Source: Candidatus Saccharimonadota bacterium | GTDB taxonomy: Bacteria; Patescibacteriota; Saccharimonadia; Saccharimonadales; Saccharimonadaceae | Direction of reading: 5' to 3' | Length of the DNA: 64,000 bases | Assembly: GCA_017511965.1 (NCBI GenBank) | Contig: JAFWHT010000012.1 | Coordinates: forward strand, 1,596 to 65,595 | In this document: positions 551 through 40,249 of the stretch, one piece after another | Layout: each line of letters begins with the position of its first letter | How positions within the stretch are numbered: position 1 is the first letter of the stretch | Translations under genes and position numbers: made by a program | The notes under the pieces: generated by a model | The model's database searches: none | What the model was told of the DNA's origin: nothing | The model's input: only the letters and a program-made list of their open reading frames with translations

Positions 551-1990
551 TTATTCTCCTTCTTTTACAGTATATAGATATATTATATCAGAATCCTCTT
601 TCATTGGCGATGTGAAAATCCGCATAAGTTGGTATCCTTCACTTAAGTCTTTTGGCTTTCCCAAAAACGCCACCGTGCCCGGAGTCTCCTTTAGGTTGTT
701 GATTACTTTAATATCAGTTTTTTGTTCTAAAATTTTATAAAAATCATAATTGTCAAAAACAAATAATTCCCCATCTTTGATATTTTTATTGATCACTTCT
801 AACTTATACGAAAACTGATTCGCCACCGTTGGGTTATAGCGATACCCATAAATATATTGAAGCAGCCCAGGTATTATAATAAATCCAAACAAAATTGTTA
901 GCGGGAATAAGGCAAAAATCCTCGCATACGGATTTTCCGGAAAAAGTCCATACCATTTTTCAAGCAGATATTTGATGCCATGCGCAATCAAAATCGAAAA
1001 TGGCAAAATCAAGAAAATAATTGCATTTGGATTAAACCCGGCAATAATCACACAAAAAACCAAGAGTAGCGACGCGATTGAATTTCGCGAAGCAAAAAAT
1101 CCTTTAGTGGTAGAAAATAGCCCTACCAACGCCAAGACAAAAGTCGGCAAACTTATCAGTGGCGACAAGAAAACTCCCTCTACGCTATGATGCCACGAAA
1201 ACACCGGAGCCAACCCTGCCGAGATGTTATCCAAAAAATTACCTAGCTGAAAATCTTTACTCAAGAATAATTCCGCCACAATTTCGTGGTTTCGGTAAAT
1301 CCCAAATCCTAGCAAGAAAAACCCACCTAAAATAATCAACATTACCAACGCTAACGGAAATTTGGGCAACTCTTTAATCAAAAATCTTAGATGTGGTTGG
1401 AACAAAACAAATAATACGCAAAAAATTGCAAAATATACCATGTATGGCGTAAAAATCGCTACTAGCATTGAGATAGCAAACAAAAAACAATAAAACGGCC
1501 GGGGCTTTTTTTCGCCGTGGATTTTCGAGCCAAGCCACAAAAGTAGTGTTGGCCAAAAAACTATCATGATTAGTGGCGTACCAGAGCCAGCCAAAAACAA
1601 AAATGGCGTGGAAAGCACCACCAAGCATGACGCCAAAAGCGACACATTACTTTTAAACCAACGGTTTAAAAGAAGTACCAAGAGTAAACCTAAAACTAAA
1701 CCAACCAAAACGCTCGGTAATTTTATTGCAAACGGAGTTAGTCCAAAGAGTAAAATCGAACATTTTTGTAGTAGATGATACGGAAAATTTAACAAGTCAC
1801 CATTTAGCAAATTACTTTTACCTAAATAAAAAGATTTTGTCGCCGAAGCGATTTCATCCGTCGATAAACCTCTTTGTGCAACTAATGGCAATAAAAAGAG
1901 TAGCGCAATAAAAGTTAGTCCGAGCACAATATAGCCGATAATAAACCTATATCGATATAAAAAAAGTTTAGAAATAATAATTTTCTTCAC
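551..1990 (-). CDS. Polytopic membrane protein, candidate GT-C fold (ArnT/PMT-like) glycosyltransferase
   Basis: 479 aa with more than 10 hydrophobic segments and a C-terminal soluble domain. The topology resembles GT39/GT83-type enzymes. I recognised no catalytic motif with certainty. Confidence 0.35.
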   Translation of the reverse strand: MKKIIISKLFLYRYRFIIGYIVLGLTFIALLFLLPLVAQRGLSTDEIASATKSFYLGKSNLLNGDLLNFPYHLLQKCSILLFGLTPFAIKLPSVLVGLVLGLLLVLLLNRWFKSNVSLLASCLVVLSTPFLFLAGSGTPLIMIVFWPTLLLWLGSKIHGEKKPRPFYCFLFAISMLVAIFTPYMVYFAIFCVLFVLFQPHLRFLIKELPKFPLALVMLIILGGFFLLGFGIYRNHEIVAELFLSKDFQLGNFLDNISAGLAPVFSWHHSVEGVFLSPLISLPTFVLALVGLFSTTKGFFASRNSIASLLLVFCVIIAGFNPNAIIFLILPFSILIAHGIKYLLEKWYGLFPENPYARIFALFPLTILFGFIIIPGLLQYIYGYRYNPTVANQFSYKLEVINKNIKDGELFVFDNYDFYKILEQKTDIKVINNLKETPGTVAFLGKPKDLSEGYQLMRIFTSPMKEDSDIIYLYTVKEGE

Positions 1991-2007
1991 ATAACCATTA
2001 TATCATA

Positions 2008-3366
2008 CTAGTGTTCTTTGTCGAGCGTCATGAATCTTGAGCGTTCTTTGTCAAAGTATAGTTCTATTGTACCGAGCGCTCCACGTCGATGCTTCCTGAT
2101 AATTAATTCGGTGATATTTGTATCTTCTTCATCTTTTTTCTTATAATAATCAACTCGGTGAATAAAAATTGCAAGGTCGGCGTCCTGCTCAATCGAACCC
2201 GAATCTCTTAAATCCGACAAAACCGGCCTGGGATCTTCTCGCCCTTCTACATTACGCGACAACTGCGCCAAAGCTACAACCGGAACACTAAGTTCTCTCG
2301 CTAAAATTTTTAATCCACGCGAAATCTCGGTAATTTCCTGCACTCGATTACCAGCATATCGATCAGATCCCGTAATAAGTTGCAAATAATCAAGCACGAT
2401 AATTCCGATGTCGTGATCGTGCGCCGCACGTCGCGCTTTATTGCGTAGCTCGGTAATCGTCATCGAGCTTGTATCGTCAATATAAATCGGCACCTCATCC
2501 ATTTCGCCCAGCGCATCGCCAATTTTCGCAAATTCCGTATCCGACAAATTCCCTGTTCGCATTTTCCAGCTATCAACTCCCGAAACGCTCGAAATCATAT
2601 TATCGATAATTTCGTTTGCCGCCATCTCCATCGAGAAAAACAAAACGCCTCGCTTATTAATACTCGCGATATTGTAAGCTAAATTTTGGGCAAAAGTCGT
2701 TTTACCCATCGACGGACGCGCCCCGACGATAATCAAATCGCCTTTCTGAAAACCAGCAGTCTTTTTATCGAGGTCAGAAAATCCAGTTTTTAGTCCACGT
2801 AATGCCCCCTTGTTTTTTTGTAATTCCTCCAACCGATCAAACGCATCTGCCAAAAGCTCATCCATCGCCACATAATCACTCTTAATAATCTTATCCGAAA
2901 CCTCAAATAATTCCTGCTCGGCTCGCCCAACTAAATCATCCGCATTCGCATCATCTTCATAAGCCTTATTCGCGATTTCCGTCCCAGCTTTAATCAAACG
3001 TCGCCTTACCGCCGCCTTTTCAATAATATCCGCATACGCCTTCGCGTGCGCCGCCGCTGGCACAAATTCCGAAAGCTCGGTTAAATACGCCGCTCCGCCA
3101 ACCTCTTTTAATTTTTTCTTACTTCGAAGTTCCGCCGTCAAGGTCAAAAGATCGATCGGTTTATGCGCATCATATAAATCGGTTATCGCTTGAAAAATAG
3201 CCTCATGCCGTTTTTCATAAAAATCCGCCGGCTTTAAAACGGTCAAAATATCCGGCAAAGTACCATTGTCGAGCATAATTGCCCCAAGTAGTGACTTCTC
3301 AGCTTCGACGTCTTGTGGTGGTACCCTACCACTCTGCGCTTTAGAACGGGCTTTTTCCTCCATCAT
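2008..3366 (-). CDS. dnaB: Replicative DNA helicase DnaB
   Basis: 452 aa. N-terminal DnaB domain (PPQDVEAEKSLLGAIMLD), Walker A GARPSMGKTTFA, and DYLQL / SRGLK motifs. Confidence 0.95.
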   Translation of the reverse strand: MMEEKARSKAQSGRVPPQDVEAEKSLLGAIMLDNGTLPDILTVLKPADFYEKRHEAIFQAITDLYDAHKPIDLLTLTAELRSKKKLKEVGGAAYLTELSEFVPAAAHAKAYADIIEKAAVRRRLIKAGTEIANKAYEDDANADDLVGRAEQELFEVSDKIIKSDYVAMDELLADAFDRLEELQKNKGALRGLKTGFSDLDKKTAGFQKGDLIIVGARPSMGKTTFAQNLAYNIASINKRGVLFFSMEMAANEIIDNMISSVSGVDSWKMRTGNLSDTEFAKIGDALGEMDEVPIYIDDTSSMTITELRNKARRAAHDHDIGIIVLDYLQLITGSDRYAGNRVQEITEISRGLKILARELSVPVVALAQLSRNVEGREDPRPVLSDLRDSGSIEQDADLAIFIHRVDYYKKKDEEDTNITELIIRKHRRGALGTIELYFDKERSRFMTLDKEH

Positions 3367-4618
3367 TTATTACCTCTCCTCCCATTATATCAGAAAACCG
3401 CGCCAAAGTTTCGTCTTTTGTTTTATTTTTTTCAACCTCTCCAATCTCAATTTTAAAGCCGTTCGCTACACCAGTTAGTACGCGCAAATTATTCTCCCGC
3501 GAAAGAATAGTTTTAACGATATTTTTGTCCGGATAAATTTTTAAAACTCCATTTGAAAATTCATAACTACACTTTAAAAGTTGCGCCGAAATTGCATCAT
3601 TTTGCTCGCTAACTTTCCCCACGAAGCTTTCCCAGTTGAAACTAGTTATTGTGTTGGCAGGGGTGACTGAACCGGTCTTTACTGGTTTAGTCAGGACCCC
3701 TGCCAATGCAACTAGCAGCTTCGCTTCCGCAAACGGCGCTTTAACTTCTGGCAATTTCTCGAGCAACTTAAGATACTCAGACTCCGGATTTTCAATAATA
3801 AATGAAATGATTTCTTCGGCCAAAGTTTCCGGTTTTACGCCAGAAGACAATAAATTTTTCAAAATAGTTGTAATTTTTACAACATCACCAGATAGATATA
3901 CTTTTAGTAATTCGGCAATCTTTTCGTCTGCCGGCAAACCCAACGCTGAAATTACCATCTCTTTAGTGATTAAACCCGAAGACAACGTAGCAATTTGATC
4001 GAGCAAAGACAAAGAATCCCTAAACGAACCGCCACCTCGTTTAACAATAACGCCTAGGGCCTCTGGCTCAATTTCAATCCCCTCTTTTTTCGCGACTTCC
4101 TCCAAAAACGCGAGCATTGTTTTAGTATCTGCAAGCGTAAAAGTATAAACTTGTGCTCGAGAGACAATTGTCACCGGGACTTTATGCGCATCTGTTGTCG
4201 CCATAATAAAAATTACATGCTTTGGCGGCTCTTCTAAAATTTTCAAAAGCGCATTAAATGCTTCTTTTGTTAGCATATGTACTTCATCTATAATATATAC
4301 TTTATATTTTCCGCTTGTTGGTGCAATCAAGGCCTTTTCGCGTAGTTCCCTAATGTCGTCGATTCCACGATTGCTCGCCCCGTCAATTTCGATAATATCT
4401 ACATAATCATCTTCGATTTCGTATGAGAATCCGTTAATTTCGTGCGCAAAAATTCGTGCTACAGAAGTTTTGCCAGTTCCACGTGGCCCAATAAACAAAT
4501 ACGCATGCGAAATCTTGCCTTGCTTTAGTGAACTAGTCAAGATATCAGTGACTTGCGACTGCCCAACAACCTCATCAAGTTTACAAGGTCGATATTTTCG
4601 ATATAAAGCCTTCGCCAT
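3341..4618 (-). CDS. dnaX: DNA polymerase III subunit gamma/tau
   Basis: MAKALYRKYRP..., Walker A GPRGTGKTS, DEVHML box, SRAQ sensor. The track start at 4645 is a TTG extension. The ATG at 4618 overlaps the upstream stop as TAATG. Confidence 0.9.
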   Translation of the reverse strand: MAKALYRKYRPCKLDEVVGQSQVTDILTSSLKQGKISHAYLFIGPRGTGKTSVARIFAHEINGFSYEIEDDYVDIIEIDGASNRGIDDIRELREKALIAPTSGKYKVYIIDEVHMLTKEAFNALLKILEEPPKHVIFIMATTDAHKVPVTIVSRAQVYTFTLADTKTMLAFLEEVAKKEGIEIEPEALGVIVKRGGGSFRDSLSLLDQIATLSSGLITKEMVISALGLPADEKIAELLKVYLSGDVVKITTILKNLLSSGVKPETLAEEIISFIIENPESEYLKLLEKLPEVKAPFAEAKLLVALAGVLTKPVKTGSVTPANTITSFNWESFVGKVSEQNDAISAQLLKCSYEFSNGVLKIYPDKNIVKTILSRENNLRVLTGVANGFKIEIGEVEKNKTKDETLARFSDIMGGEVINDGGKSPF

Positions 4619-30655: not shown

Positions 30656-30733
30656 AAATATAATCTCTAAAGTGGGAGCAACTTAAAAACCAGTCTACTC
30701 TAAATACACAGCGTTTTTTAAAGGAGGGCAAAG

Positions 30734-31294
30734 ATGAAAAAACGTGCGTTAATACTGTTGTTAGCTTGTGTCTTATCTACTTGCGGGCAAAAACCTGCAT
30801 CAAGTAAAGCCACAACCCAAGTCACGATAATAGACCGGCAAGAGACCAAGACGGAAACAGAGGTCGAACCGCCCAAGGCGTCAGAGCCTCCCAATGAATC
30901 TTCGCACGACATGCGCGAGGATAACCTCGCTGAGGATTGGCCCGACTGGTTCGTGGCACCTACCGGCGTCCCGGAAGACGAAGAGGTAAAGCAAGCTATC
31001 CAAGGCGCAGAATTCGACGCTTTGCCAAAATGGATGCAAGTGGTCGCCGTCCGACCACGCTCTGTAGTGGCTTGGCTGGAGATGACCAGACTAGTCACTC
31101 CACCGATTAACCCAGAGCTGTTTACGGGCTTTCTCAAAGAAAATCCTGAGTATATCATGCCAATCATGAGCCGGTTAAAAATCATATTCGAGAAAGCTGA
31201 AGCCGGCGAACAAAGCAATAACGTTGGCAGTCTTCCGCAAGAATTCATCGAAATACAGGATATCGTAAACGAAATTGCGCGTCAACTAGAGTAG
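30734..31294 (+). CDS. Acidic putative lipoprotein (186 aa) in a GC-rich patch
   Basis: AGGAGG lies 6 nt upstream. Signal peptide MKKRALILLLACVLSTC has a lipobox-like LSTC. Sampled 60-nt blocks are 57-62% GC, well above most of the window. Confidence 0.6.
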   Translation: MKKRALILLLACVLSTCGQKPASSKATTQVTIIDRQETKTETEVEPPKASEPPNESSHDMREDNLAEDWPDWFVAPTGVPEDEEVKQAIQGAEFDALPKWMQVVAVRPRSVVAWLEMTRLVTPPINPELFTGFLKENPEYIMPIMSRLKIIFEKAEAGEQSNNVGSLPQEFIEIQDIVNEIARQLE

Positions 31295-31338: not shown

Positions 31339-33864
31339 TTAAGCACTAAACGTTACTGAATTTCTTAAATCCCGATACAGACTTCGCCGAGTTAACAGCG
31401 CTAACATATCATAAAAATCTTTATCTTCTGTCAAAATATCGATTCTAAACTCTACCGGCTCTACTTTTACAAAAGCATACCGTTCCTCCGGGTTATATCT
31501 TGCCAAATAATCCATATAGTCCATATATCCAAGCGCTATTTCCGCGTCTTCTCGACTCATCCCACTCCGGCGTGCCAGAATTGCTTCTCGCGAATTATCC
31601 TGTGGGTATTTGGCCTCATACTCCTCTTTCCAGATTGCCGTGTCGCTCTTTTTTTCATCTAAAAGCGCCGAAACTGTATCTAGCAAAGTATAAGCAGAAA
31701 AAACTTCTATAGCTTCTTTGAATTGGTTAGAACTACTTATGGTGTATTTCGAACCAATCGCTACTTCTGGTGGCGGAGTAAGTAAACCACCAAGTATCGG
31801 TATATCAATCGGTGATTCGCAGGCATTATCCAAGGCAAGAAGATTACTTAGCAAAGCAGAAATTTTTCCCAAAGGTCCACCATATTTTTCTTTCCATTTC
31901 TCGCAAATCACCGCATCTTGAATCCCAACCGTAGTTTGCCGCCCCATAGCTAAATCACGCAGTTCGTCCATAGATACTTTTAGTCCCGCCAGCATTGATC
32001 CGAGCGCTTCTTTAGTTTGCCCCATTCTAGAAGTATCAATTGTATTGTGTGTCGTACAATACATATCTCCAACCACCCCAGCCGCCGTCACTGCCGTTGG
32101 GCAATTTCCGTTAGTTGTCAAATAAGATTCCTCTGCCTCCGCCAAAACTGTGTTAGAAGTTAAATCTTGCACCGATTCTTTAAACAAATCCGCTACCGAA
32201 TTGAATAACCCAGTCCCTGCCGAACTCCCACTTCTGGCGAAATTTTGTACTGCAATTACCCCAAATTTATGCGCTAAACTCCCCAAAAATGTATGCTTCG
32301 AGCTAATGTCAAACGGGCTTAGTGTTGCTCGGTCGGCTGCCGCTCGTCGGGCAAAGACTTCATCAACTACTTCTTTATAGCCCAAGACTGCTTCTGCGTC
32401 TGACGGCGCCGCAGCAAGCACCCGCGAATTGATATTGTTCGACAAAAACGACCCACCCATCGGCGTCCGTTCTCCACCAATCGTTGACTTAGTTAGCTCA
32501 TAAGTATCATCATAAAATGTCGTCGCAAGACTATTTGACGCTCTTAAAACTCGCTCGTCTGTATTTCCCTTCTCTTTCATCCTGATCAAAACATTAAATC
32601 GCTTATTTGCATTTGTCGCCATAGTGGTTCGATTAATTATGTCAGTCGCCGCCCCACCCGACATCTCAAGGATTCGGTCCCTCGAATAATCTGCCGCTTC
32701 GGATACTGAATACGAACGATTCAGTACCGTCGCCAAGAAATTCGGCGTCCTTATCAGCGAGTTCGTCGTGGTTTTGTTTGCGCCGGTTTTTACATCCGTT
32801 ACTGTTACCGTATTGACTTGGGTAAAAGTATTTAGCAACGGATCGACTAAATCCGAATGCTCGCTGTCGATTCGCGCCACATTCAACCCCTCTTCTAACG
32901 TCGAAAATGTTGCCGCTGCGATGTATGGTTCATTCGCCGAAACCGCCGTATTAAGTAGCGATACGGCCTTTTCCGTTGCTCTCTCTCCTTGAACATTCCC
33001 CCCAATCATTGTTGCAAGCGCTGCGCCACTATTTGCATCTGTTCTTTCCTCTGTCGTAAAAGAGCGAGTCTTGCATGGGCAATCTTCAATGGTCGCATCT
33101 TTGCCAGTTTGTTGTTTAAATGCCGCCGCACATTCCTCGTCTATTTTTTCGCCATCATATTTACAATCCTCATCGCACCCATTCAGCCCCACGCTCGACA
33201 CTTTTCTGATAATCCGATCAAAAATTTTTTCAAACTGCTCTTGGTCTCCCTCTATACTCCCCGTTGTCTTCCAGCTTGCAAAATTATTACGGCTCAGTCC
33301 AAACTCTTTATAAACTTTATTTACGTCATCACTATAATAAAATCTCGATGTCATATCTGTCGCTAACGCAAACGCCGCATAAAGTCGCGGGTTTGACTCA
33401 ACTTTTGCCACAAAGTCATCTGCTACAATAATTTCGCCTTCAAACCGCATTGCTAGTTCACCAGTACTATGATCATAAAATACCCCATCGCTCGCTACTT
33501 CCGTCTCTAATTCAGCCGAATAATTATTTGTTCGTACGAATTCGCCTACTAAAGTTGTCTGTCCAACCTCAACTCCATGCTTTTCAAAATCTGCCGCTAG
33601 AGTTTCATTAAAATATCCTCGTTTTAATTGACTCGCGACTACATATTCGGCCTGCTTTTCGATAACCGCCGAAGTCTCATCAAATCCTAACGCCCTCTGC
33701 AAACCGTAATCAATCGTTGCCATTACTGCTATCGGAATTGCAAACAACAAAGCCGCCGCCGCTACTGCTATAATTATTACAATCATAACAGTAGCCCCTA
33801 CAGCCATTGCGACTTTTTTGTTTTTGTTCTTACCAGTTATATTTTCTTGTTCATCGTTTTCCAT
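31339..33864 (-). CDS. Large bitopic protein (841 aa), N-terminal TM anchor, family unknown
   Basis: N-terminal KNKNKK plus a long hydrophobic helix, then about 780 aa of hydrophilic sequence with a Cys cluster (NGCDEDCKYDGEKIDEECAAAF...DCPCK). No Walker motif or hydrolase motif seen. Last gene of the operon. Confidence 0.6.
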   Translation of the reverse strand: MENDEQENITGKNKNKKVAMAVGATVMIVIIIAVAAAALLFAIPIAVMATIDYGLQRALGFDETSAVIEKQAEYVVASQLKRGYFNETLAADFEKHGVEVGQTTLVGEFVRTNNYSAELETEVASDGVFYDHSTGELAMRFEGEIIVADDFVAKVESNPRLYAAFALATDMTSRFYYSDDVNKVYKEFGLSRNNFASWKTTGSIEGDQEQFEKIFDRIIRKVSSVGLNGCDEDCKYDGEKIDEECAAAFKQQTGKDATIEDCPCKTRSFTTEERTDANSGAALATMIGGNVQGERATEKAVSLLNTAVSANEPYIAAATFSTLEEGLNVARIDSEHSDLVDPLLNTFTQVNTVTVTDVKTGANKTTTNSLIRTPNFLATVLNRSYSVSEAADYSRDRILEMSGGAATDIINRTTMATNANKRFNVLIRMKEKGNTDERVLRASNSLATTFYDDTYELTKSTIGGERTPMGGSFLSNNINSRVLAAAPSDAEAVLGYKEVVDEVFARRAAADRATLSPFDISSKHTFLGSLAHKFGVIAVQNFARSGSSAGTGLFNSVADLFKESVQDLTSNTVLAEAEESYLTTNGNCPTAVTAAGVVGDMYCTTHNTIDTSRMGQTKEALGSMLAGLKVSMDELRDLAMGRQTTVGIQDAVICEKWKEKYGGPLGKISALLSNLLALDNACESPIDIPILGGLLTPPPEVAIGSKYTISSSNQFKEAIEVFSAYTLLDTVSALLDEKKSDTAIWKEEYEAKYPQDNSREAILARRSGMSREDAEIALGYMDYMDYLARYNPEERYAFVKVEPVEFRIDILTEDKDFYDMLALLTRRSLYRDLRNSVTFSA

Positions 33865-33867
33865 AAA

Positions 33868-35802
33868 TTACATGATCCCGCCCGTCCAAGGATTACGTTT
33901 TGCTCCGCCATTGTTTTGATTTGTGGAGCCATTAGAGCTATTGGATCCACTAGGACCATTGCCACTCGAGCCACTCGAGCTAGTAGAGCCTCCCCCAGCT
34001 CCCGTAGAACCACCCGTAGTTCCTTGTGGCGGCAGATTTCTTCCTTGATATTCCTCCCGCACCGCTAGCTGTGATCCCTCTGCGATATCACCCAGATTAT
34101 ACGCACTAGCATTATTGTGCAATCCGCTGAGTCGCGCATCGCTCACGTGCTTGACCAATTCCTTTACCTCGCTTGTAGATTGCGTCATAAAGTCCTTATC
34201 TTTATCAAGCACCTTACGCGCGATATTTTGGACGACAGTTGTGCCATCAACTTGTCTTCCAGCAGTTTGTTCGCTCTGCATCCAGTTAGCCTGATCTTGT
34301 CTCATTTCTGCATGATTAGCAAACGTAGCTTTTCGCCCAGCCGCCGCTTCTTCGCGCCGATGGGTCAAATAATCATTATTCATAGCATCATATTGCTCTT
34401 GCGTCGTATCGGCAGAAATCGCACCCGAAGCAATATCAGAAAGCCTCGAAGAAGTTCGGCGACTCTTACTATCCATCGCATTCTTTACTGCATTATTCTT
34501 CGCCATCGCTTCACCCATTAACTCTGCCGATGTGCCAGTTCTTCCTTCGCTCGCCTTAGCGATTTGCTTTGCGCCCCCCATCATACCAGATAATTGCGAA
34601 GTTAGAGCGTCGATCTTCCTTAGCTCGCCAGCATTTAATGTCTCTCCTTGATCTACTCTATTTAGAAGACCACTCAACTGATTCCCCATAATATCAACGT
34701 TGTAATTTCCGGTCTCTTCACGCATCGCCATTTTGGTTGCTTCGATATCCTCAGCTGCACCTCGTTCAGCTAACGATTGATTTCTCGCAAAGCCTCTTTC
34801 TCCTCCCGAAATCCAAGCGCGGAATCGCTGTCTTCCACTCGCAGTGCCAGCCCGTACTGCCTTATAGGCATCGGCATTTCTTTTTGCTCGGCCAAGCATA
34901 GCTGTTCTCTCTGCATCTTTATAAATTGCCGAATTCTGTACGACTCCCTCTGCTTGCCTTAAACCACTCTTGACATTAGCGCCAATTCTCTGTAGATAAC
35001 CACCCATCTCGCCAAATACCGCCAACGCTTTTTCAAGAATCTTCGGCGCTGCCGCTAGTGGCAAGAATATCATTACTATTGCCACTATTGCTAGTCCCGG
35101 ATTATCACCATTAGCACTCGATATCGCAAGTAGTCGCATTATCCTTGAAGCTGCCAAAATCGCCGCACAAACCGGATAAACCATCAAAATAATTTTAAAA
35201 GCATCAAACCATTTTTTATAAATTTGTTGAGTATTCGGCAAAATATAGCAAAGCATTGCTAGTGGTGCTACTGCTACCAAAAGCGCCGCAAGTAGTTGTC
35301 GAAGCCCTACCATCAAGAAGAATATAATCACCGAAACCAACGCATAAAGAGCCAAGAAAATTATCGGAATCAACCAAAACATCCCGCCAACCGTAAGTGC
35401 TGCAGCTATTGATCCAGCTACTGCTCCCCCTGCCGAAGCAACTCCAAAAAGTGAAGCAAATATCGCTCCAAAAGTTAGCGCAGAGCCATCGACTCCAGTT
35501 TGACTTTGTACACTATAATAAGCATCACGTGCAGCAGCTATAATTCCTTTTCCGATAATGTTTGACAAATCTACTGCTACCTGGCAAATTAAATAAGACA
35601 GATTAATCAAAATTGCCACAATAATCAACTTCGGCAACATTTTCTTGATACCATAGTTATCAATTCCAAACCCAGTTAATTGTGAGAAAATAATTGCCAG
35701 TAGAATAACAATCATCCCAGCATTGGCGAAAGTCATTAGATTTTGCCAAATCAAAAATGTGGCACTGCCGTCTCCAAAAAGGTTAGCTTCTAACTGAAAC
35801 AT
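33868..35802 (-). CDS. Polytopic membrane protein, VirB6/TrbL-like (tentative), with long hydrophilic C-terminal domain and G/S/N-rich tail
   Basis: 644 aa. Residues 1-260 carry about 6 TM helices (LPKLIIVAILINLSYLICQVAVDLSNIIG...), followed by about 380 aa of soluble sequence ending GTTGGSTGAGGGSTSSSGSSGNGPSGSNSSNGSTNQNN. Assignment rests on architecture and recollection, not on a search. Confidence 0.45.
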   Translation of the reverse strand: MFQLEANLFGDGSATFLIWQNLMTFANAGMIVILLAIIFSQLTGFGIDNYGIKKMLPKLIIVAILINLSYLICQVAVDLSNIIGKGIIAAARDAYYSVQSQTGVDGSALTFGAIFASLFGVASAGGAVAGSIAAALTVGGMFWLIPIIFLALYALVSVIIFFLMVGLRQLLAALLVAVAPLAMLCYILPNTQQIYKKWFDAFKIILMVYPVCAAILAASRIMRLLAISSANGDNPGLAIVAIVMIFLPLAAAPKILEKALAVFGEMGGYLQRIGANVKSGLRQAEGVVQNSAIYKDAERTAMLGRAKRNADAYKAVRAGTASGRQRFRAWISGGERGFARNQSLAERGAAEDIEATKMAMREETGNYNVDIMGNQLSGLLNRVDQGETLNAGELRKIDALTSQLSGMMGGAKQIAKASEGRTGTSAELMGEAMAKNNAVKNAMDSKSRRTSSRLSDIASGAISADTTQEQYDAMNNDYLTHRREEAAAGRKATFANHAEMRQDQANWMQSEQTAGRQVDGTTVVQNIARKVLDKDKDFMTQSTSEVKELVKHVSDARLSGLHNNASAYNLGDIAEGSQLAVREEYQGRNLPPQGTTGGSTGAGGGSTSSSGSSGNGPSGSNSSNGSTNQNNGGAKRNPWTGGIM

Positions 35803-36077
35803 TATTCAAAAAACTCCTCTATTTTAGTACTTAATGCATCCACCGCCCCCGCGAGCGTTCGGATTACCGGGCAAACCACCCAGCCCAAACTTACAGATTT
35901 TTTACATTCCTCAATAAATTCCTCTTTATCTAGTACATAAGAATCGCTTGCAAAAGAACCACTCCTCCCACCGTGCTGTCTGCTGTCGTCTTCTGCATTT
36001 GCAATCTGTCCTACCAAAAACAGCGAACTAATCATTATAACTGCTACTATTATTAATTTTAGCTTTTTTCTTCTCAT
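35802..36077 (-). CDS. Small secreted protein (91 aa) carrying the shared WVVCP...LAGAVD...FFE C-terminal module
   Basis: Signal peptide MRRKKLKLIIVAVIMISSLFLVGQIANA. ATGA overlap with the upstream gene and TAATG overlap with the downstream gene. Confidence 0.65.
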   Translation of the reverse strand: MRRKKLKLIIVAVIMISSLFLVGQIANAEDDSRQHGGRSGSFASDSYVLDKEEFIEECKKSVSLGWVVCPVIRTLAGAVDALSTKIEEFFE

Positions 36078-37591
36078 TCAAAAAACCCTTCTATTCCATT
36101 AGCTAACATATCTACCGCGCCCGCTAGCGCGTCAATCATTGGACAAACCACCCAAGGTAATAAAATCTCTTCGCTCTGCAAGCACGCATCGTAAAAATTC
36201 TCTGCCTGAAAATCTCCTAAAAGCTCATCTTCCGAATGTATTGTGATATTAAATCCTGCCAATGTATCTCTACAGGTCCAAATAAAATCAGTTGGCACTT
36301 CTCCACCCGTGAATTGAATTAATTCCTCGCCACCACTAGCGTCTCTTTTTGCTACATGTTCTCCCGTACGTTGAACTCTTTCGTATTCATTTAGTACCTC
36401 TCTCGCCGCTGCTTTTTCTTCTTCGTTTCTTTCAGGATCATTTAATACTTTTTCTTCGATTTCGCTTTTCTTTTTCGCAATCTCTTTATTAATCTCTTGG
36501 CGACAGTAATTCAAAATCTTCTCATTTACAAATTTTACATACTCGCCTATCGTATCGTTCATTTTGCGAATTAACGCTCGACAAGTTTTAGTATCACTGC
36601 CAGAGCTCATCGCAAAACTCCCCTTTGCAGTATCTTTAGACGAATCATTGATGTAGTAAGAACCAGATTTTACATTACCGCTAGAATCCACTTTAAATCC
36701 GACTTCTCCATCTGTTGCGCCTTCTACGAAAGTCGCCGAAATACTACTGCACTGTTTTTCGAAATCTAAACTATATAGATAAAAACCATCAACCTTGTCA
36801 TAATTATGCAAATCATCAAAAGAAATTCGCTGGATATATTCGTTACCAGATTTTGCCTGAAAATCTTGATAAAGTTGTTTTAGGAAAGCGTCTCTTTGCC
36901 CTGCATCTTCGTTAAATTTAAACACTTCGGCGTCTGTGCAAGAAATACTCGAGTCGGCCTCGACTTTTTGCGTGACAAGATCAAACGCCGTTGTCCCGTC
37001 GTTACCGAGATTTATCGCATCGCCATACTTTGCGGGTTTAAAAATACCCGTACCTGCATCATTGCAGGCTACTTTCAAGATATCTTCTTTACTCACCGAA
37101 ACCGAACCAGACAATGCAAAATCAGAGTTATAGTTTTTATATACGTAGGCCGCCATACTCATCAGACTTCCTCCGCTTTTTAATTGGTCGGTACATTTAA
37201 TGTTGCCGTCATTTTTGCCGTCCCCGTCAGTAAAATGCCCCTCAAACCACACGCCAGTCCCGATATTCGTCGGTCTCGAATAAACGTTGCCACTTGCTAC
37301 ATCTTTAGCCGAAAAACCTTGCGTTGTTGTGCTACCGGTAGTAGCTCTAGTTACGCTATCCATGCATCGTCCAAATTTCTGGAAGACCAAATGCGCCTGT
37401 GCCGCATTTTTAATTTTCGACCATTGGTCATACAAATCAACATTCGTTGCACTAAGGCCTAATTTTTGATACGTTACTTCGAGATCTGCATAAGCTTTAA
37501 GTGGTACAAGGAAAAACTGCACTGCTAACACCACCACAACAAATATACTCATCCATCTTTTACTCTTCGCTATATTCATCGTATCCTCCAA
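36074..37591 (-). CDS. Secreted protein (505 aa) with coiled-coil segment and the same C-terminal module
   Basis: Signal peptide ...KSKRWMSIFVVVVLAVQFFLVPLKAYA. It has a charged helical stretch (EINKEIAKKKSEIEEKVLNDPERNEEEKAAAREVLNEYERV) and ends LPWVVCPMIDALAGAVDMLANGIEGFFE. Confidence 0.65.
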   Translation of the reverse strand: MEDTMNIAKSKRWMSIFVVVVLAVQFFLVPLKAYADLEVTYQKLGLSATNVDLYDQWSKIKNAAQAHLVFQKFGRCMDSVTRATTGSTTTQGFSAKDVASGNVYSRPTNIGTGVWFEGHFTDGDGKNDGNIKCTDQLKSGGSLMSMAAYVYKNYNSDFALSGSVSVSKEDILKVACNDAGTGIFKPAKYGDAINLGNDGTTAFDLVTQKVEADSSISCTDAEVFKFNEDAGQRDAFLKQLYQDFQAKSGNEYIQRISFDDLHNYDKVDGFYLYSLDFEKQCSSISATFVEGATDGEVGFKVDSSGNVKSGSYYINDSSKDTAKGSFAMSSGSDTKTCRALIRKMNDTIGEYVKFVNEKILNYCRQEINKEIAKKKSEIEEKVLNDPERNEEEKAAAREVLNEYERVQRTGEHVAKRDASGGEELIQFTGGEVPTDFIWTCRDTLAGFNITIHSEDELLGDFQAENFYDACLQSEEILLPWVVCPMIDALAGAVDMLANGIEGFFE

Positions 37592-38255
37592 AATCTCTTA
37601 CCAGTGCGATAATACGTCCCATCACATCACAATAATATATCTCGTCAAAGGCTTCATAATCAGTATAAACTGCCAAAATCTCTTCCGACATTCCAGGATA
37701 AACCAGCGTCCCATCTTTTGCCGCTGCATCAATTTTATCTACAATGCTAGTAATTTTTTGATTGTTAAGTGCAAGTAATTGTTTTCGTTTATCTGCACTA
37801 TAATCATTTTCGATATATTCGTACAATAAGTTATATAATGTTACGGTATCAGTATAAGCAGGTAGATTTGTTTTCATACTTTCCAGTAATGTTGTAAAAT
37901 CTTCCAACACCAGTTCGTCTGTAATTTCATTTACATTCACATTATTTAAATCCGTGCTAAATTTATTCATTATTTCACCGATTTTATTTATCGAATCTTT
38001 AGTGTTTTTAAAGAAAAATTCTAATCCAAAAGCATAACTACCGTTAGCCATGTCTTCAAAAAGCCCTTGCGCCCAACCAACATCATTATAATTATTGTCC
38101 AACATTTCTGAAATCGAAATATCTACTTCTCCATCATCCTGTTCTTCCCCGCTTGTAAATATCGTCATAATACCAAAAACAAGACCGAGCACTAAAATAA
38201 TCCCAATCACCAAAAACCAAACCTTATTCTTAGTACTCACCCTATTGGTATCCAT
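37560..38255 (-). CDS. Bitopic acidic protein (231 aa), N-terminal TM anchor
   Basis: VWFLVIGIILVLGLVFGIMTIF helix followed by an acidic ectodomain. Its size and topology resemble VirB8-type components, but no motif supports this. Confidence 0.5.
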   Translation of the reverse strand: MDTNRVSTKNKVWFLVIGIILVLGLVFGIMTIFTSGEEQDDGEVDISISEMLDNNYNDVGWAQGLFEDMANGSYAFGLEFFFKNTKDSINKIGEIMNKFSTDLNNVNVNEITDELVLEDFTTLLESMKTNLPAYTDTVTLYNLLYEYIENDYSADKRKQLLALNNQKITSIVDKIDAAAKDGTLVYPGMSEEILAVYTDYEAFDEIYYCDVMGRIIALVRDFGGYDEYSEE

Positions 38256-38296: not shown

Positions 38297-39442
38297 TTAT
38301 TTTTTATAACCTTCTAATGTGACATTTACGGCCGTTTCGCCACCATTGCGATATACGGTTAGCTGTACTGTATCACCCGGCTCGTATTCCGAAACCAAAT
38401 TCGCCAAAGATCCAGCCGCGCCAACTTTTACACCGTTTACTGCTGTTACAATATCTTTGTCGAGTAGTCCCGCTTTAGCCGCCGGACTATTTTTAATAAT
38501 TGCCGAATAAGTCGACGAACTATAAAGATATGCTCCCGACGAAACCGGTAATTCATAGGCTTTTGCGATTTCTGGAGTGATGTCTACCGAATATACGCCA
38601 AGATAAGTTCGCTCTGCCGAGCCGTTTTTGACTAACTGTTTTAACATCCCCTTTACGCTCGAAATCGGAATCGCAAAACCCATATTCTCCGCCGAAGTCG
38701 AAACCGCCGTATTAATTCCAATCACTTCTCCCGCCGCATTAACGAGCGGCCCACCGGAGTTACCAGAGTTAATCGCCGCATCAGTTTGAATCATATCGGT
38801 CAAAGTTTCTGTATTATAACCAGTACTATCTGACGCCGTTACTGAACGCCCCGTACCCGAAACAATCCCAGAAGTTACAGTATTTTGATATTCGCCCAAA
38901 GCATTACCTATCGCAATTACTTGTTGGCCGACTGTAATTGTTTTAGAGTCGCCTAAAGTCACTGCCGGCAAATCCGAAACATCTTTTATTCTTAGAAATG
39001 CCACATCGTTTAGCGGGTCCGTCGCCACTGTCTCAACTTCCTCATAAATTGTTCCGTCATCTAATACCACGTATACTTTATTTGCATCATTTATTACGTG
39101 TTTGTTGGTTAAAATATATCCGTCGCTCGTTACGATTATACCAGTCCCTGCCGCCGAAGAATCATAACTTCGTCCAAAAAAATCTGCCGATTTTACTGAC
39201 GTTACTATCGACACCACCGATTTAGATACTTTGTCTGCGATTTCTGCAATTGATCCTTCAATAAAATTTGCCGAGTTTCCATCTACCCCGCCTCCCAAAA
39301 ACGTAATCGGTGTCGAAACTTTGGTGTAAGCCATCAGCCCAAAAGTCAATCCACTCCCGCCAACTAGTATCGAAATTAAGACCAAAAACACCAAAATTCC
39401 ATTTACGTTAGTCTTTTTTTCTTCTTTCTCTTTCATTTCCAC
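38297..39442 (-). CDS. htrA: HtrA/DegP-family serine protease with PDZ domain, N-terminal TM anchor
   Basis: 381 aa. GTGIIVTSDGYILTNKHV (His), DVAFL (Asp), GNSGGPLVN (Ser) and a C-terminal PDZ-like region. Confidence 0.9.
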   Translation of the reverse strand: MEMKEKEEKKTNVNGILVFLVLISILVGGSGLTFGLMAYTKVSTPITFLGGGVDGNSANFIEGSIAEIADKVSKSVVSIVTSVKSADFFGRSYDSSAAGTGIIVTSDGYILTNKHVINDANKVYVVLDDGTIYEEVETVATDPLNDVAFLRIKDVSDLPAVTLGDSKTITVGQQVIAIGNALGEYQNTVTSGIVSGTGRSVTASDSTGYNTETLTDMIQTDAAINSGNSGGPLVNAAGEVIGINTAVSTSAENMGFAIPISSVKGMLKQLVKNGSAERTYLGVYSVDITPEIAKAYELPVSSGAYLYSSSTYSAIIKNSPAAKAGLLDKDIVTAVNGVKVGAAGSLANLVSEYEPGDTVQLTVYRNGGETAVNVTLEGYKK

Positions 39443-39448
39443 CTCCTT

Positions 39449-40249
39449 TTAGTTTAATAAAATCGTAAATCTTGGATCACTAAAGAATACCACAATCACC
39501 CCTATAAGCACCAGTCCAAAAATTACTGGTCCAGCAATATGTACAAACCTAAAATCGTCTTGGTATTTTATCATTGCTTGACGGGCATAATTATATACAA
39601 ATGCAAAAATTGTCAAAATTATCGCCAGCTGCGGCAATTTTACGCCTGACAAACCAAAATTTTCATAAGTATAAATAATCGACCAAACCGACGATAGGTA
39701 AGTCACTTCTGCAAAAATTAGTCCACAAATCAAAGTTGCTAGTGTAAAATTTTTATCGCTACCTTGCGCCAAAACATGGCGACTTGCCGCATAGCCAATC
39801 ATAAAAGATATCAGCACCAACCAAATTGAGTTTAACCCCGATGTTAGTAGTACTCCAGCTGATATTCCCAAAAACACTGCCACCAACGCTTGCACCAGGG
39901 TGGCTGTTTCTGACGATAGTGGCTTAATAAATAACAGCCATACCGGATAAAACACCATTAAAATTATATCCGAAATCAAAAATGTTGTTCCACCAGCATA
40001 CGCTAATAATACTACGCTAATTCCCACGATTATATCCACCAAGTTAGCTTTTAAATTAACAAAAAAATACCGTGATCTTACTGCAAAAATTCGCCATTTC
40101 GACACTAACACTAGCAAAATTCCAATCAGTGGGCTTCCTGACAAAACCGTCACTAGTACCGCTCCTACTCCCAACAAGATATTCAAAAACACTTGTACCA
40201 TGCTACTCGCGATGTTTCGAGATTTTCTAGCTAACACATAATCCGCCAT
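39449..40249 (-). CDS. Polytopic membrane protein (266 aa), unknown family
   Basis: About 8 hydrophobic helices. First gene of the minus-strand operon. TGgTAATAT lies 7 nt upstream of the ATG. Confidence 0.55.
   Translation of the reverse strand: MADYVLARKSRNIASSMVQVFLNILLGVGAVLVTVLSGSPLIGILLVLVSKWRIFAVRSRYFFVNLKANLVDIIVGISVVLLAYAGGTTFLISDIILMVFYPVWLLFIKPLSSETATLVQALVAVFLGISAGVLLTSGLNSIWLVLISFMIGYAASRHVLAQGSDKNFTLATLICGLIFAEVTYLSSVWSIIYTYENFGLSGVKLPQLAIILTIFAFVYNYARQAMIKYQDDFRFVHIAGPVIFGLVLIGVIVVFFSDPRFTILLN

Follow-up and report, generated by a model that had tools for sequence, protein, structure and literature searches.

Why should two adjacent, apparently exported proteins of very different size end in the same short cysteine-containing sequence? 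The question is raised by a 64,000-nucleotide (nt) stretch of DNA from a Candidatus Saccharimonadota bacterium (assembly GCA_017511965.1, contig JAFWHT010000012.1, positions 1,596 to 65,595 of the forward strand), referred to here as the window, in which proteins of 505 and 91 amino acids (aa) are encoded upstream of a 644-aa membrane protein of VirB6/TrbL type. The answer reached here is that the window holds a VirB6 with a long N-terminal head that has undergone gene fission, together with an extra headless copy of its signal peptide and neck. The features concerned are the following:

36074..37591, minus strand: head protein, 505 aa; an open reading frame (ORF) with a signal peptide, a Cys-rich variable predicted ectodomain of ~430 aa and a C-terminal neck module
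36077..36196, minus strand: neck module copy 1 (FYDAC...WVVCP...FFE), profile match with E = 1.7e-17
35802..36077, minus strand: headless mini-protein, 91 aa; an ORF with a signal peptide, a linker of ~25 aa and a neck module
35805..35918, minus strand: neck module copy 2 (FIEEC...WVVCP...FFE), profile match with E = 3.4e-19
33868..35802, minus strand: VirB6/TrbL-like base, 644 aa; a short acidic N-tail without a signal peptide, a polytopic domain (~1-275) and a predicted cytoplasmic tail with a Gly/Ser-rich end

The C-terminal ends of the 505-aa and 91-aa proteins read ...FYDACLQSEEILLPWVVCPMIDALAGAVDMLANGIEGFFE and ...FIEECKKSVSLGWVVCPVIRTLAGAVDALSTKIEEFFE, each followed by the stop codon, and in the shorter tail stretches ...WVVCPMIDALAGAVDMLANGIEGFFE and ...WVVCPVIRTLAGAVDALSTKIEEFFE 18 of the last 26 residues are identical. 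BLASTP aligned the two proteins at their C-termini alone (23/42 identities, E = 5e-12), and the underlying DNA contains a 79-nt direct repeat (35804-35882 and 36076-36154) with 72% identity. Judged by these alignments, the similarity of the tails is far beyond chance, which agrees with the common Cys-containing module described in the first-pass annotation. Two further observations made there were reproduced, namely a second Cys located 10 or 12 residues upstream of the WVVCP Cys in both proteins, and N-termini that resemble signal peptides (...IANA, then EDD, and ...KAYA, then DLE). The mature 91-aa protein possesses exactly two Cys, both within the neck module. The 505-aa ORF starts with TTG, and it is 501 aa long if counted from the ATG at 37579, the start chosen by database gene callers. 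The 505-aa, 91-aa and 644-aa genes are arranged head to tail on the minus strand with overlapping stop and start codons (ATGA and TAATG); the earlier statement that both small-tail genes lie immediately before the VirB6-like gene therefore holds in the sense that both are upstream, abutting one another and the 644-aa gene through these overlaps.

The annotation had also described the module as belonging to no known family, and this still stands: none of the five proteins encoded in the cluster matched a family significantly in Pfam or NCBIfam, the 505-aa protein and seven relatives had no Pfam match, and a profile of the module searched against the PDB sequences produced only noise (E above 0.9). 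When the AlphaFold model of the 505-aa protein was compared with the PDB by Foldseek, nothing was found at E below 3, the model itself being weak (predicted local distance difference test, pLDDT, of 60 from an eight-row alignment).

Word-based homologue searches with the 91-aa and 505-aa proteins recovered near-identical sequences only, and an exhaustive profile search was needed to reach the diverged forms; this gave 214 matching representatives among 1.84 billion representative proteins. In most of these, which are long proteins, the module falls within residues ~40-210 or ~330-520. It falls within residues ~37-190 in at least 164 clusters of VirB6-like proteins of ~990-1260 aa from Saccharibacteria, where a signal peptide and a variable head precede it and the first membrane helix comes ~25 residues further on. 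Because it follows the signal peptide and precedes the first membrane helix, the neck of these fused proteins would be extracytoplasmic. The module consists of a loop closed by two invariant Cys (C-x10-12-C within ...LGW[LVI][VIL]CP) and of a subsequent amphipathic helix of ~20 residues (hydrophobic moment 0.43-0.50), with C74, G82, W83, C86, P87, D97, Y100 and L107 invariant in 86 sequences; AlphaFold modelled it, at low confidence, as a short helix plus a helix of ~25 residues. The two Cys probably form an extracytoplasmic disulfide, and two DsbA-like genes (PF13462) are present in the genome (G000:C27:25323-25793 and G000:C37:13795-14250). Thus, the disulfide-stapled amphipathic helix that had been offered as one possible nature of the module fits structurally, as regards the invariant Cys, the predicted helix and the DsbA-like genes, with the disulfide itself being the presumed part. 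As a separate observation, the same 695-kb genome has a weak VKOR-like match on contig C17 beside the two DsbA-like genes, which is relevant to its many Cys-rich exported proteins. On the strength of its position in these sequences, the module is a conserved, predicted extracytoplasmic neck that joins a surface head to a VirB6/TrbL-like membrane base in Saccharibacteria.

Seven clusters among the profile matches have the module at the end of the protein, including these three:

P0234: 524 aa, ends ...EEFFK
P0250: 539 aa, ends ...GGFFE
P0205: small protein, ends ...EGFFQ

The conserved C-terminal FF[EKQ] is particular to the clade in which the gene is split, and outside this clade the module is internal. 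For this reason, the original picture of a shared C-terminal tag carried by two proteins is misleading, and the C-terminal position of the module is better regarded as a by-product of gene fission at the boundary between the neck and the base of an extended VirB6.

The number and the location of the module copies are in line with this assignment. The genome from which the window derives (695 kb, 97% complete) has exactly three copies, and the third one is located on contig C18, at residues 74-107 of a canonical 1093-aa VirB6, behind a signal peptide and a Thr/Glu-rich linker and before the polytopic domain. The first-pass annotation had proposed looking for the module at other C-termini of this genome; the search found this one additional copy, which is internal. 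The C18 gene (L004:7929-11210) heads a Gram-positive-type type IV secretion system (T4SS) cluster, in which three T4SS pilins (PF18895), oppositely oriented, are followed by the VirB6-like gene, a PrgI fusion, a 314-aa protein, VirB4 and a glucosaminidase-CHAP hydrolase. This cluster is of the same kind as the chromosomal T4SS of Southlakia epibionticum, with pilins, VirB6, PrgI, VirB4 and a hydrolase; in strain ML1, this T4SS includes VirB6 (SEML1_0006-0019) and is essential by transposon sequencing (PMC10633639, PMC12102498).

In 41 related genomes, the count of modules closely tracks that of the VirB6 paralogues, a check that the annotation had proposed together with the linkage to VirB6-like genes, and every module match shares a long frame with a VirB6 membrane-domain match that follows closely behind it, with two exceptions. 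One is the genome of the window, where the module lies in frames of 91 and 507 aa, and the other is G032, a genome from a different family of this order, in which the canonical VirB6 comes in two pieces. The G032 gene (L078, G032:C16:11500-16500) is located beside pilin genes and is interrupted after the first membrane helix, giving an ORF of 397 aa (2547-3740, minus strand) with the head, the module with CA in place of CP and the first transmembrane helix, and an ORF of 601 aa (742-2547, minus strand), which overlap by stop and start codons; from the sequence, this break may be either an independent fission or a frameshift. When 201 genomes were sampled across the phylum, module matches were confined to the family of the window. 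Weaker matches are present in roughly half of the remaining families of the order. Genomes of the same genus encode two or three VirB6-like paralogues, and the other families of the order mostly one. Among membrane-domain matches with E below 1e-16, the copy in the window is alone in being a 645-aa frame that begins at the membrane domain; the others occur in frames of 626-1299 aa, all but three of which have at least 860 aa.

The 644-aa protein shares 38% identity, over 266 aa, with the canonical fused 1093-aa VirB6 of C18, and the alignment begins at residue 116 of this paralogue, directly behind the module. A profile of 15 base domains, with that of the window as the first row, had a sole match in the PDB, which is TrwI/VirB6 of R388 (7o3v_F, E = 1.9e-4); PF04610 (TrbL) is matched by 10 of the 15 family members, with a best E of 2.6e-6, and the near-identical product of locus L055 (94.5% nt identity) has a precomputed match to PF19590 (TrbL_3). 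The membrane domain agrees with the five or more hydrophobic helices of VirB6/TrbL: the AlphaFold model of the paralogue has long helices at 119-148, 157-202, 241-286, 291-328 and 332-371, and hydrophobic stretches can be seen in the 644-aa protein. Lys and Arg are absent from the N-tails of the split bases, and three Lys occur in the loop that follows the first membrane helix, a distribution that fits an N-terminus facing outward without the aid of a signal peptide. The family thus resembles VirB6/TrbL (TrwI of R388, PDB 7O3V, PF04610) in having a polytopic membrane domain with detectable homology, and differs from it because the Saccharibacteria protein bears an extracellular head at its N-terminus, behind a signal peptide, and a neck made of a Cys loop and a helix, all of which TrwI-type VirB6 lacks, and because in the window head and neck are encoded separately from the base. 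An observation apart concerns the canonical C18 VirB6, whose residues ~500-1000 are modelled as an all-helical cytoplasmic domain of ~500 aa with pLDDT above 90 and only weak solenoid-like matches in the PDB (best E = 0.026), a confidently predicted fold for which no relative is known.

That the genes of the window were once a single gene is documented by a 1073-aa protein of genome G013, of the same genus, in which residues 1-467 align with the 505-aa protein (E = 2.6e-19) and residues 476-817 with the 644-aa protein (E = 1e-55). These alignments, being in order, indicate that the window holds the separated parts of a long-head VirB6; likewise, the 91-aa and 644-aa proteins placed end to end match the fused VirB6 of C18 in order. 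The ancestral arrangement is still visible in 20 long-head paralogues, which represent the second VirB6 of same-genus genomes and are all built from a signal peptide, then a Cys-rich head of 190-535 aa, the module, a linker of ~25 residues and the membrane domain. Within these 20 loci, the module is fused in one frame in 16, in-frame stops occur in three, and one has no module. Gene fission, in which separate proteins align in order and without overlap to one protein of a relative, is also what the trees indicate: maximum-likelihood trees built on the base domain unite the split forms in one clade (support 100/98-99), which is nested in the long-head clade (99/98), and place the canonical short-head VirB6 proteins in a distant clade. 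The topology of the split clade, (L063,(L059,(window,L055))), implies one fission, with the small gene appearing later. A frameshift or an assembly error at a run of six T was considered and rejected, because the same junctions are found in four independent assemblies.

The split has persisted and is found in at least 11 assemblies, in two-part and three-part forms. Locus L055 has the same three genes and junctions, with 94.5% nt identity over 2983 nt, and so do L056, L057 and L058, the last two being over 99% identical. In the comparison with L055, the ratio of nonsynonymous to synonymous substitution rates (dN/dS) is 0.03 for the last 190 residues of the head, 0.14 for the 91-aa gene and 0.135 for the base, and the module part of the 91-aa gene has five synonymous and two conservative changes; all three genes are under purifying selection. 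A diverged three-part split is present in L064 and L065, where a head ending ...DFF is followed by a small protein of 101 aa and by a base beginning MFQL...; the small protein of L064 occupies the same position as the 91-aa protein and is 40% identical to it (E = 5e-20). The two-part form occurs in L059-L062, which encode a 524-aa head, a 900-aa TrbL_3 base with a TAATG overlap and then a 1162-aa protein, and in L063, with an ATGA overlap; in the diverged head orthologues P0234 and P0250 the final FFK or FFE comes directly before the VirB6 base gene. In L060 (3515-6218), the 900-aa base is called as pieces of 212 and 705 aa, which may reflect a strain-level frameshift or an assembly error.

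The age of the duplication can be read from the two module copies of the window, which share 69-72% nt identity and in which 8 of the 18 codons for identical residues differ synonymously; this divergence implies that the duplication is old and that the similarity of the proteins was kept by selection. Recent gene conversion between the copies was rejected on the same grounds, given this identity and the absence of a long exact repeat. With regard to the genomic context, the L059-type locus adjoins prmC and prfA, as does the window, and this neighbourhood is common to these two loci only; the idea that it is shared by the fused long-head genes of the relatives turned out to be wrong, as those genes are located by folD, murB and recA.

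The interpretation that we favour, and consider likely, is that the secreted necks of this split long-head VirB6 dock both the head and its headless copy on the VirB6 base in a noncovalent manner. An ancestor with the order signal peptide, variable head, neck, polytopic VirB6 base and cytoplasmic tail was split once in its long-head paralogue, exactly behind the neck helix, and the head gene was later duplicated, with one copy losing the head. Three products would then arise from translationally coupled genes: a Sec-exported head with its neck (505 aa), a Sec-exported headless neck (91 aa) and the base (644 aa), which would keep a short acidic N-tail facing outward. The necks would bind the outer face of the base, probably an oligomer, so that the head is held on the surface of a cell that has a single membrane. 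Docking on the base is proposed because such a cell would lose a secreted head that is unbound and because the base is the covalently linked partner in the relatives. The headless 91-aa copy might occupy the same sites as a filler, a cap or a competitor, which is a guess. Among the three functions that had been suggested for the module, docking to the downstream membrane protein is the best supported, through the gene-fusion evidence, and remains the deduced part of the scheme.

Some results weigh against this interpretation. The 644-aa protein alone is below significance against the Pfam TrbL family, and its assignment to VirB6/TrbL follows from the family profile and from the paralogue. Furthermore, the split cluster contains neither an ATPase nor PrgI, opposite to the C18 paralogue that has PrgI and VirB4 beside it, which makes the base of the window an orphan VirB6 paralogue; it may feed the single T4SS of the genome, on C18, or act by itself. 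Lastly, the pLDDT of the AlphaFold monomers at the module is low, at ~50-57 for the fused protein and 30-38 for the 505-aa one; in the fused C18 paralogue the model is confident in the cytoplasmic C-terminal domain alone, with pLDDT ~50-70 for the module and the membrane part, and Foldseek returned no significant fold match for it.

The most serious competitor, which nonetheless appears unlikely, is that the neck is mainly a self-association helix, by which the heads form an oligomer of their own (e.g., a five-helix collar) before leaving the base, either to sit on a pilus tip like VirB5 or to be released. The amphipathic helix with its heptad-like pattern would suit this role, and the presence of two different proteins with the module beside a single base would be in keeping with a mixed oligomer. 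Moreover, these Saccharibacteria have T4SS pilins and no recognisable VirB5 (PMC12857230), and the VirB5 of R388 is first seated on VirB6 and then displaced outward as the pilus grows (PMC9259494). However, most relatives have the neck in one polypeptide with the base, from which it cannot detach, neither Pfam nor Foldseek against the PDB (with a weak model) revealed sequence or fold similarity to VirB5, and the split locus does not adjoin pilin genes.

Another explanation is that the three ORFs are decaying fragments of a VirB6 paralogue and that the similarity of the modules is a leftover of local duplication. It could draw on the 16 of 20 same-genus loci where the gene is in one piece, and on the further break of the base gene in L060. 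This view is largely refuted and retains very little probability, as dN/dS is 0.03-0.14 for all three ORFs, neither the signal peptides nor the coupled stop/start overlaps are disrupted, lineages with less than 50% identity have retained the split and their split forms make up a single clade, and the synonymous sites of the two modules are near saturation against a conserved protein sequence.

A sorting signal had also been among the options of the first-pass annotation. That the module should sort or anchor proteins from their C-terminus and be recognised and processed by an enzyme of its own, as LPXTG and PEP-CTERM signals are, is equally improbable. The extreme C-terminal location in two exported proteins and the conserved FF[EKQ] ending of the split clade invite this comparison. 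Nevertheless, in over 200 homologues the module is internal, its end ...IEEFFE is acidic and has neither the hydrophobic span nor the basic tail of such signals, and the cluster contains no gene resembling a sortase or an exosortase, so that this option is not supported. Ribosomal frameshifting that restores a fused VirB6 can be given hardly any credence either, for although all junctions put the downstream gene in the same relative frame (-1/+2) beside a run of six T, a TGA in the downstream frame one or two codons before each ATG leaves a window of 1-3 nt with no slippery heptamer, a product that joined the 505-aa and 91-aa parts would contain an internal signal peptide, and the overlaps are of the ordinary kind seen with translational coupling.

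Noncovalent docking on the base has a counterpart in a known system. In R388, a pentamer of the separately secreted VirB5 is placed on a pentamer of VirB6, each VirB5 being seated between two VirB6 subunits, and deletion of VirB6 leads to the loss of VirB5 (PMC9259494). The similarity with this TrwJ/TrwI stalk is that a Sec-exported protein encoded just upstream of virB6 sits noncovalently on VirB6, as proposed here for the 505-aa and 91-aa proteins; the differences are that the partner in the window derives from the N-terminus of VirB6 itself by fission, that the organism has a single membrane, and that there is no similarity to VirB5 in sequence or fold. Extended VirB6 proteins are also encoded by Rickettsiales (VirB6-1 to -4 of Anaplasma and Ehrlichia; PMC7648143), which similarly have several paralogues per small genome, large hydrophilic extensions and a life that depends on a host cell. 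Their extensions are central or C-terminal, whereas in Saccharibacteria the variable part is N-terminal, predicted to be extracellular, placed on a conserved neck and detached in the split clade. Such Rickettsiales-type paralogues are called 'extended-VirB6' in PMC12857230, and the role of their extensions is an acknowledged open question. In the Trw system of Bartonella (amplified variable trwJ-trwI-trwH and trwL; PMC12857230), duplicated and diverging surface-exposed T4SS parts beside VirB6 are thought to widen host binding; there, whole genes for VirB5, VirB6 and VirB7 exist as tandem copies, opposite to the window, which has one base and two alternative partners that bear the neck. No description of the neck module, of the N-terminal heads and the long-head paralogue, or of the split form was found in PMC10633639, PMC12102498, PMC12857230 and PMC7648143, as far as these texts are searchable.

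The cluster includes two further genes that flank the split VirB6:

31339..33864, minus strand: single-pass membrane protein, 841 aa; directly downstream, a conserved neighbour of the split VirB6 with no family match
37560..38255, minus strand: single-pass membrane protein, 231 aa; directly upstream of the head gene, a conserved neighbour

Homologues of the 841-aa protein are the 1162-aa product encoded directly after the L059 base and a 1071-aa protein encoded upstream of a fused VirB6 in L050; those of the 231-aa protein have 253 aa in L059 and 290 aa in L063, and their genes again directly precede the head gene. On the same strand and directly upstream of the cluster (38297-40249) are genes for an HtrA-type protease (Trypsin_2 and PDZ, 381 aa) and for a 266-aa polytopic membrane protein without a family, which may belong to the operon of the VirB6 cluster. 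On the other side, between prmC and the VirB6 cluster, a plus-strand gene (30718-31294) encodes a 186-aa lipoprotein-like product, MKKRALILLLACVLSTCG..., and carries a full-length antisense ORF of 176 aa.

The heads are homologous in patches only, and that of the window matches P0234, P0250 and the head of the G013 protein. The pairs united by head similarity (L036-L053, L047-L054, L035-L050 and L040-window) contradict the tree of the bases, where L036 groups with L040 and the split clade with L035/L037/L038, and this suggests that heads have been exchanged, at or close to the neck, among VirB6 paralogues or among lineages.

Because a natural split maintained by selection marks an exact domain boundary, the locus predicts an interface between a short conserved neck and the VirB6 base, for which the 91-aa protein is a ready-made minimal binding probe. 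The variable and apparently swappable heads on a constant neck are candidates for the recognition of the host surface, in bacteria whose T4SS is essential for epibiotic growth and has an unknown function (PMC10633639). A bolder possibility, to which only a low probability is attached, is that the head-neck proteins are the VirB5 counterpart of the single-membrane candidate phyla radiation, namely exchangeable secreted recognition subunits seated on VirB6 through a universal neck, with the 91-aa protein setting the number of heads or capping free sites. If this were true, the neck would be a plug-in socket for the host-recognition domains of an epibiont's essential secretion machine.

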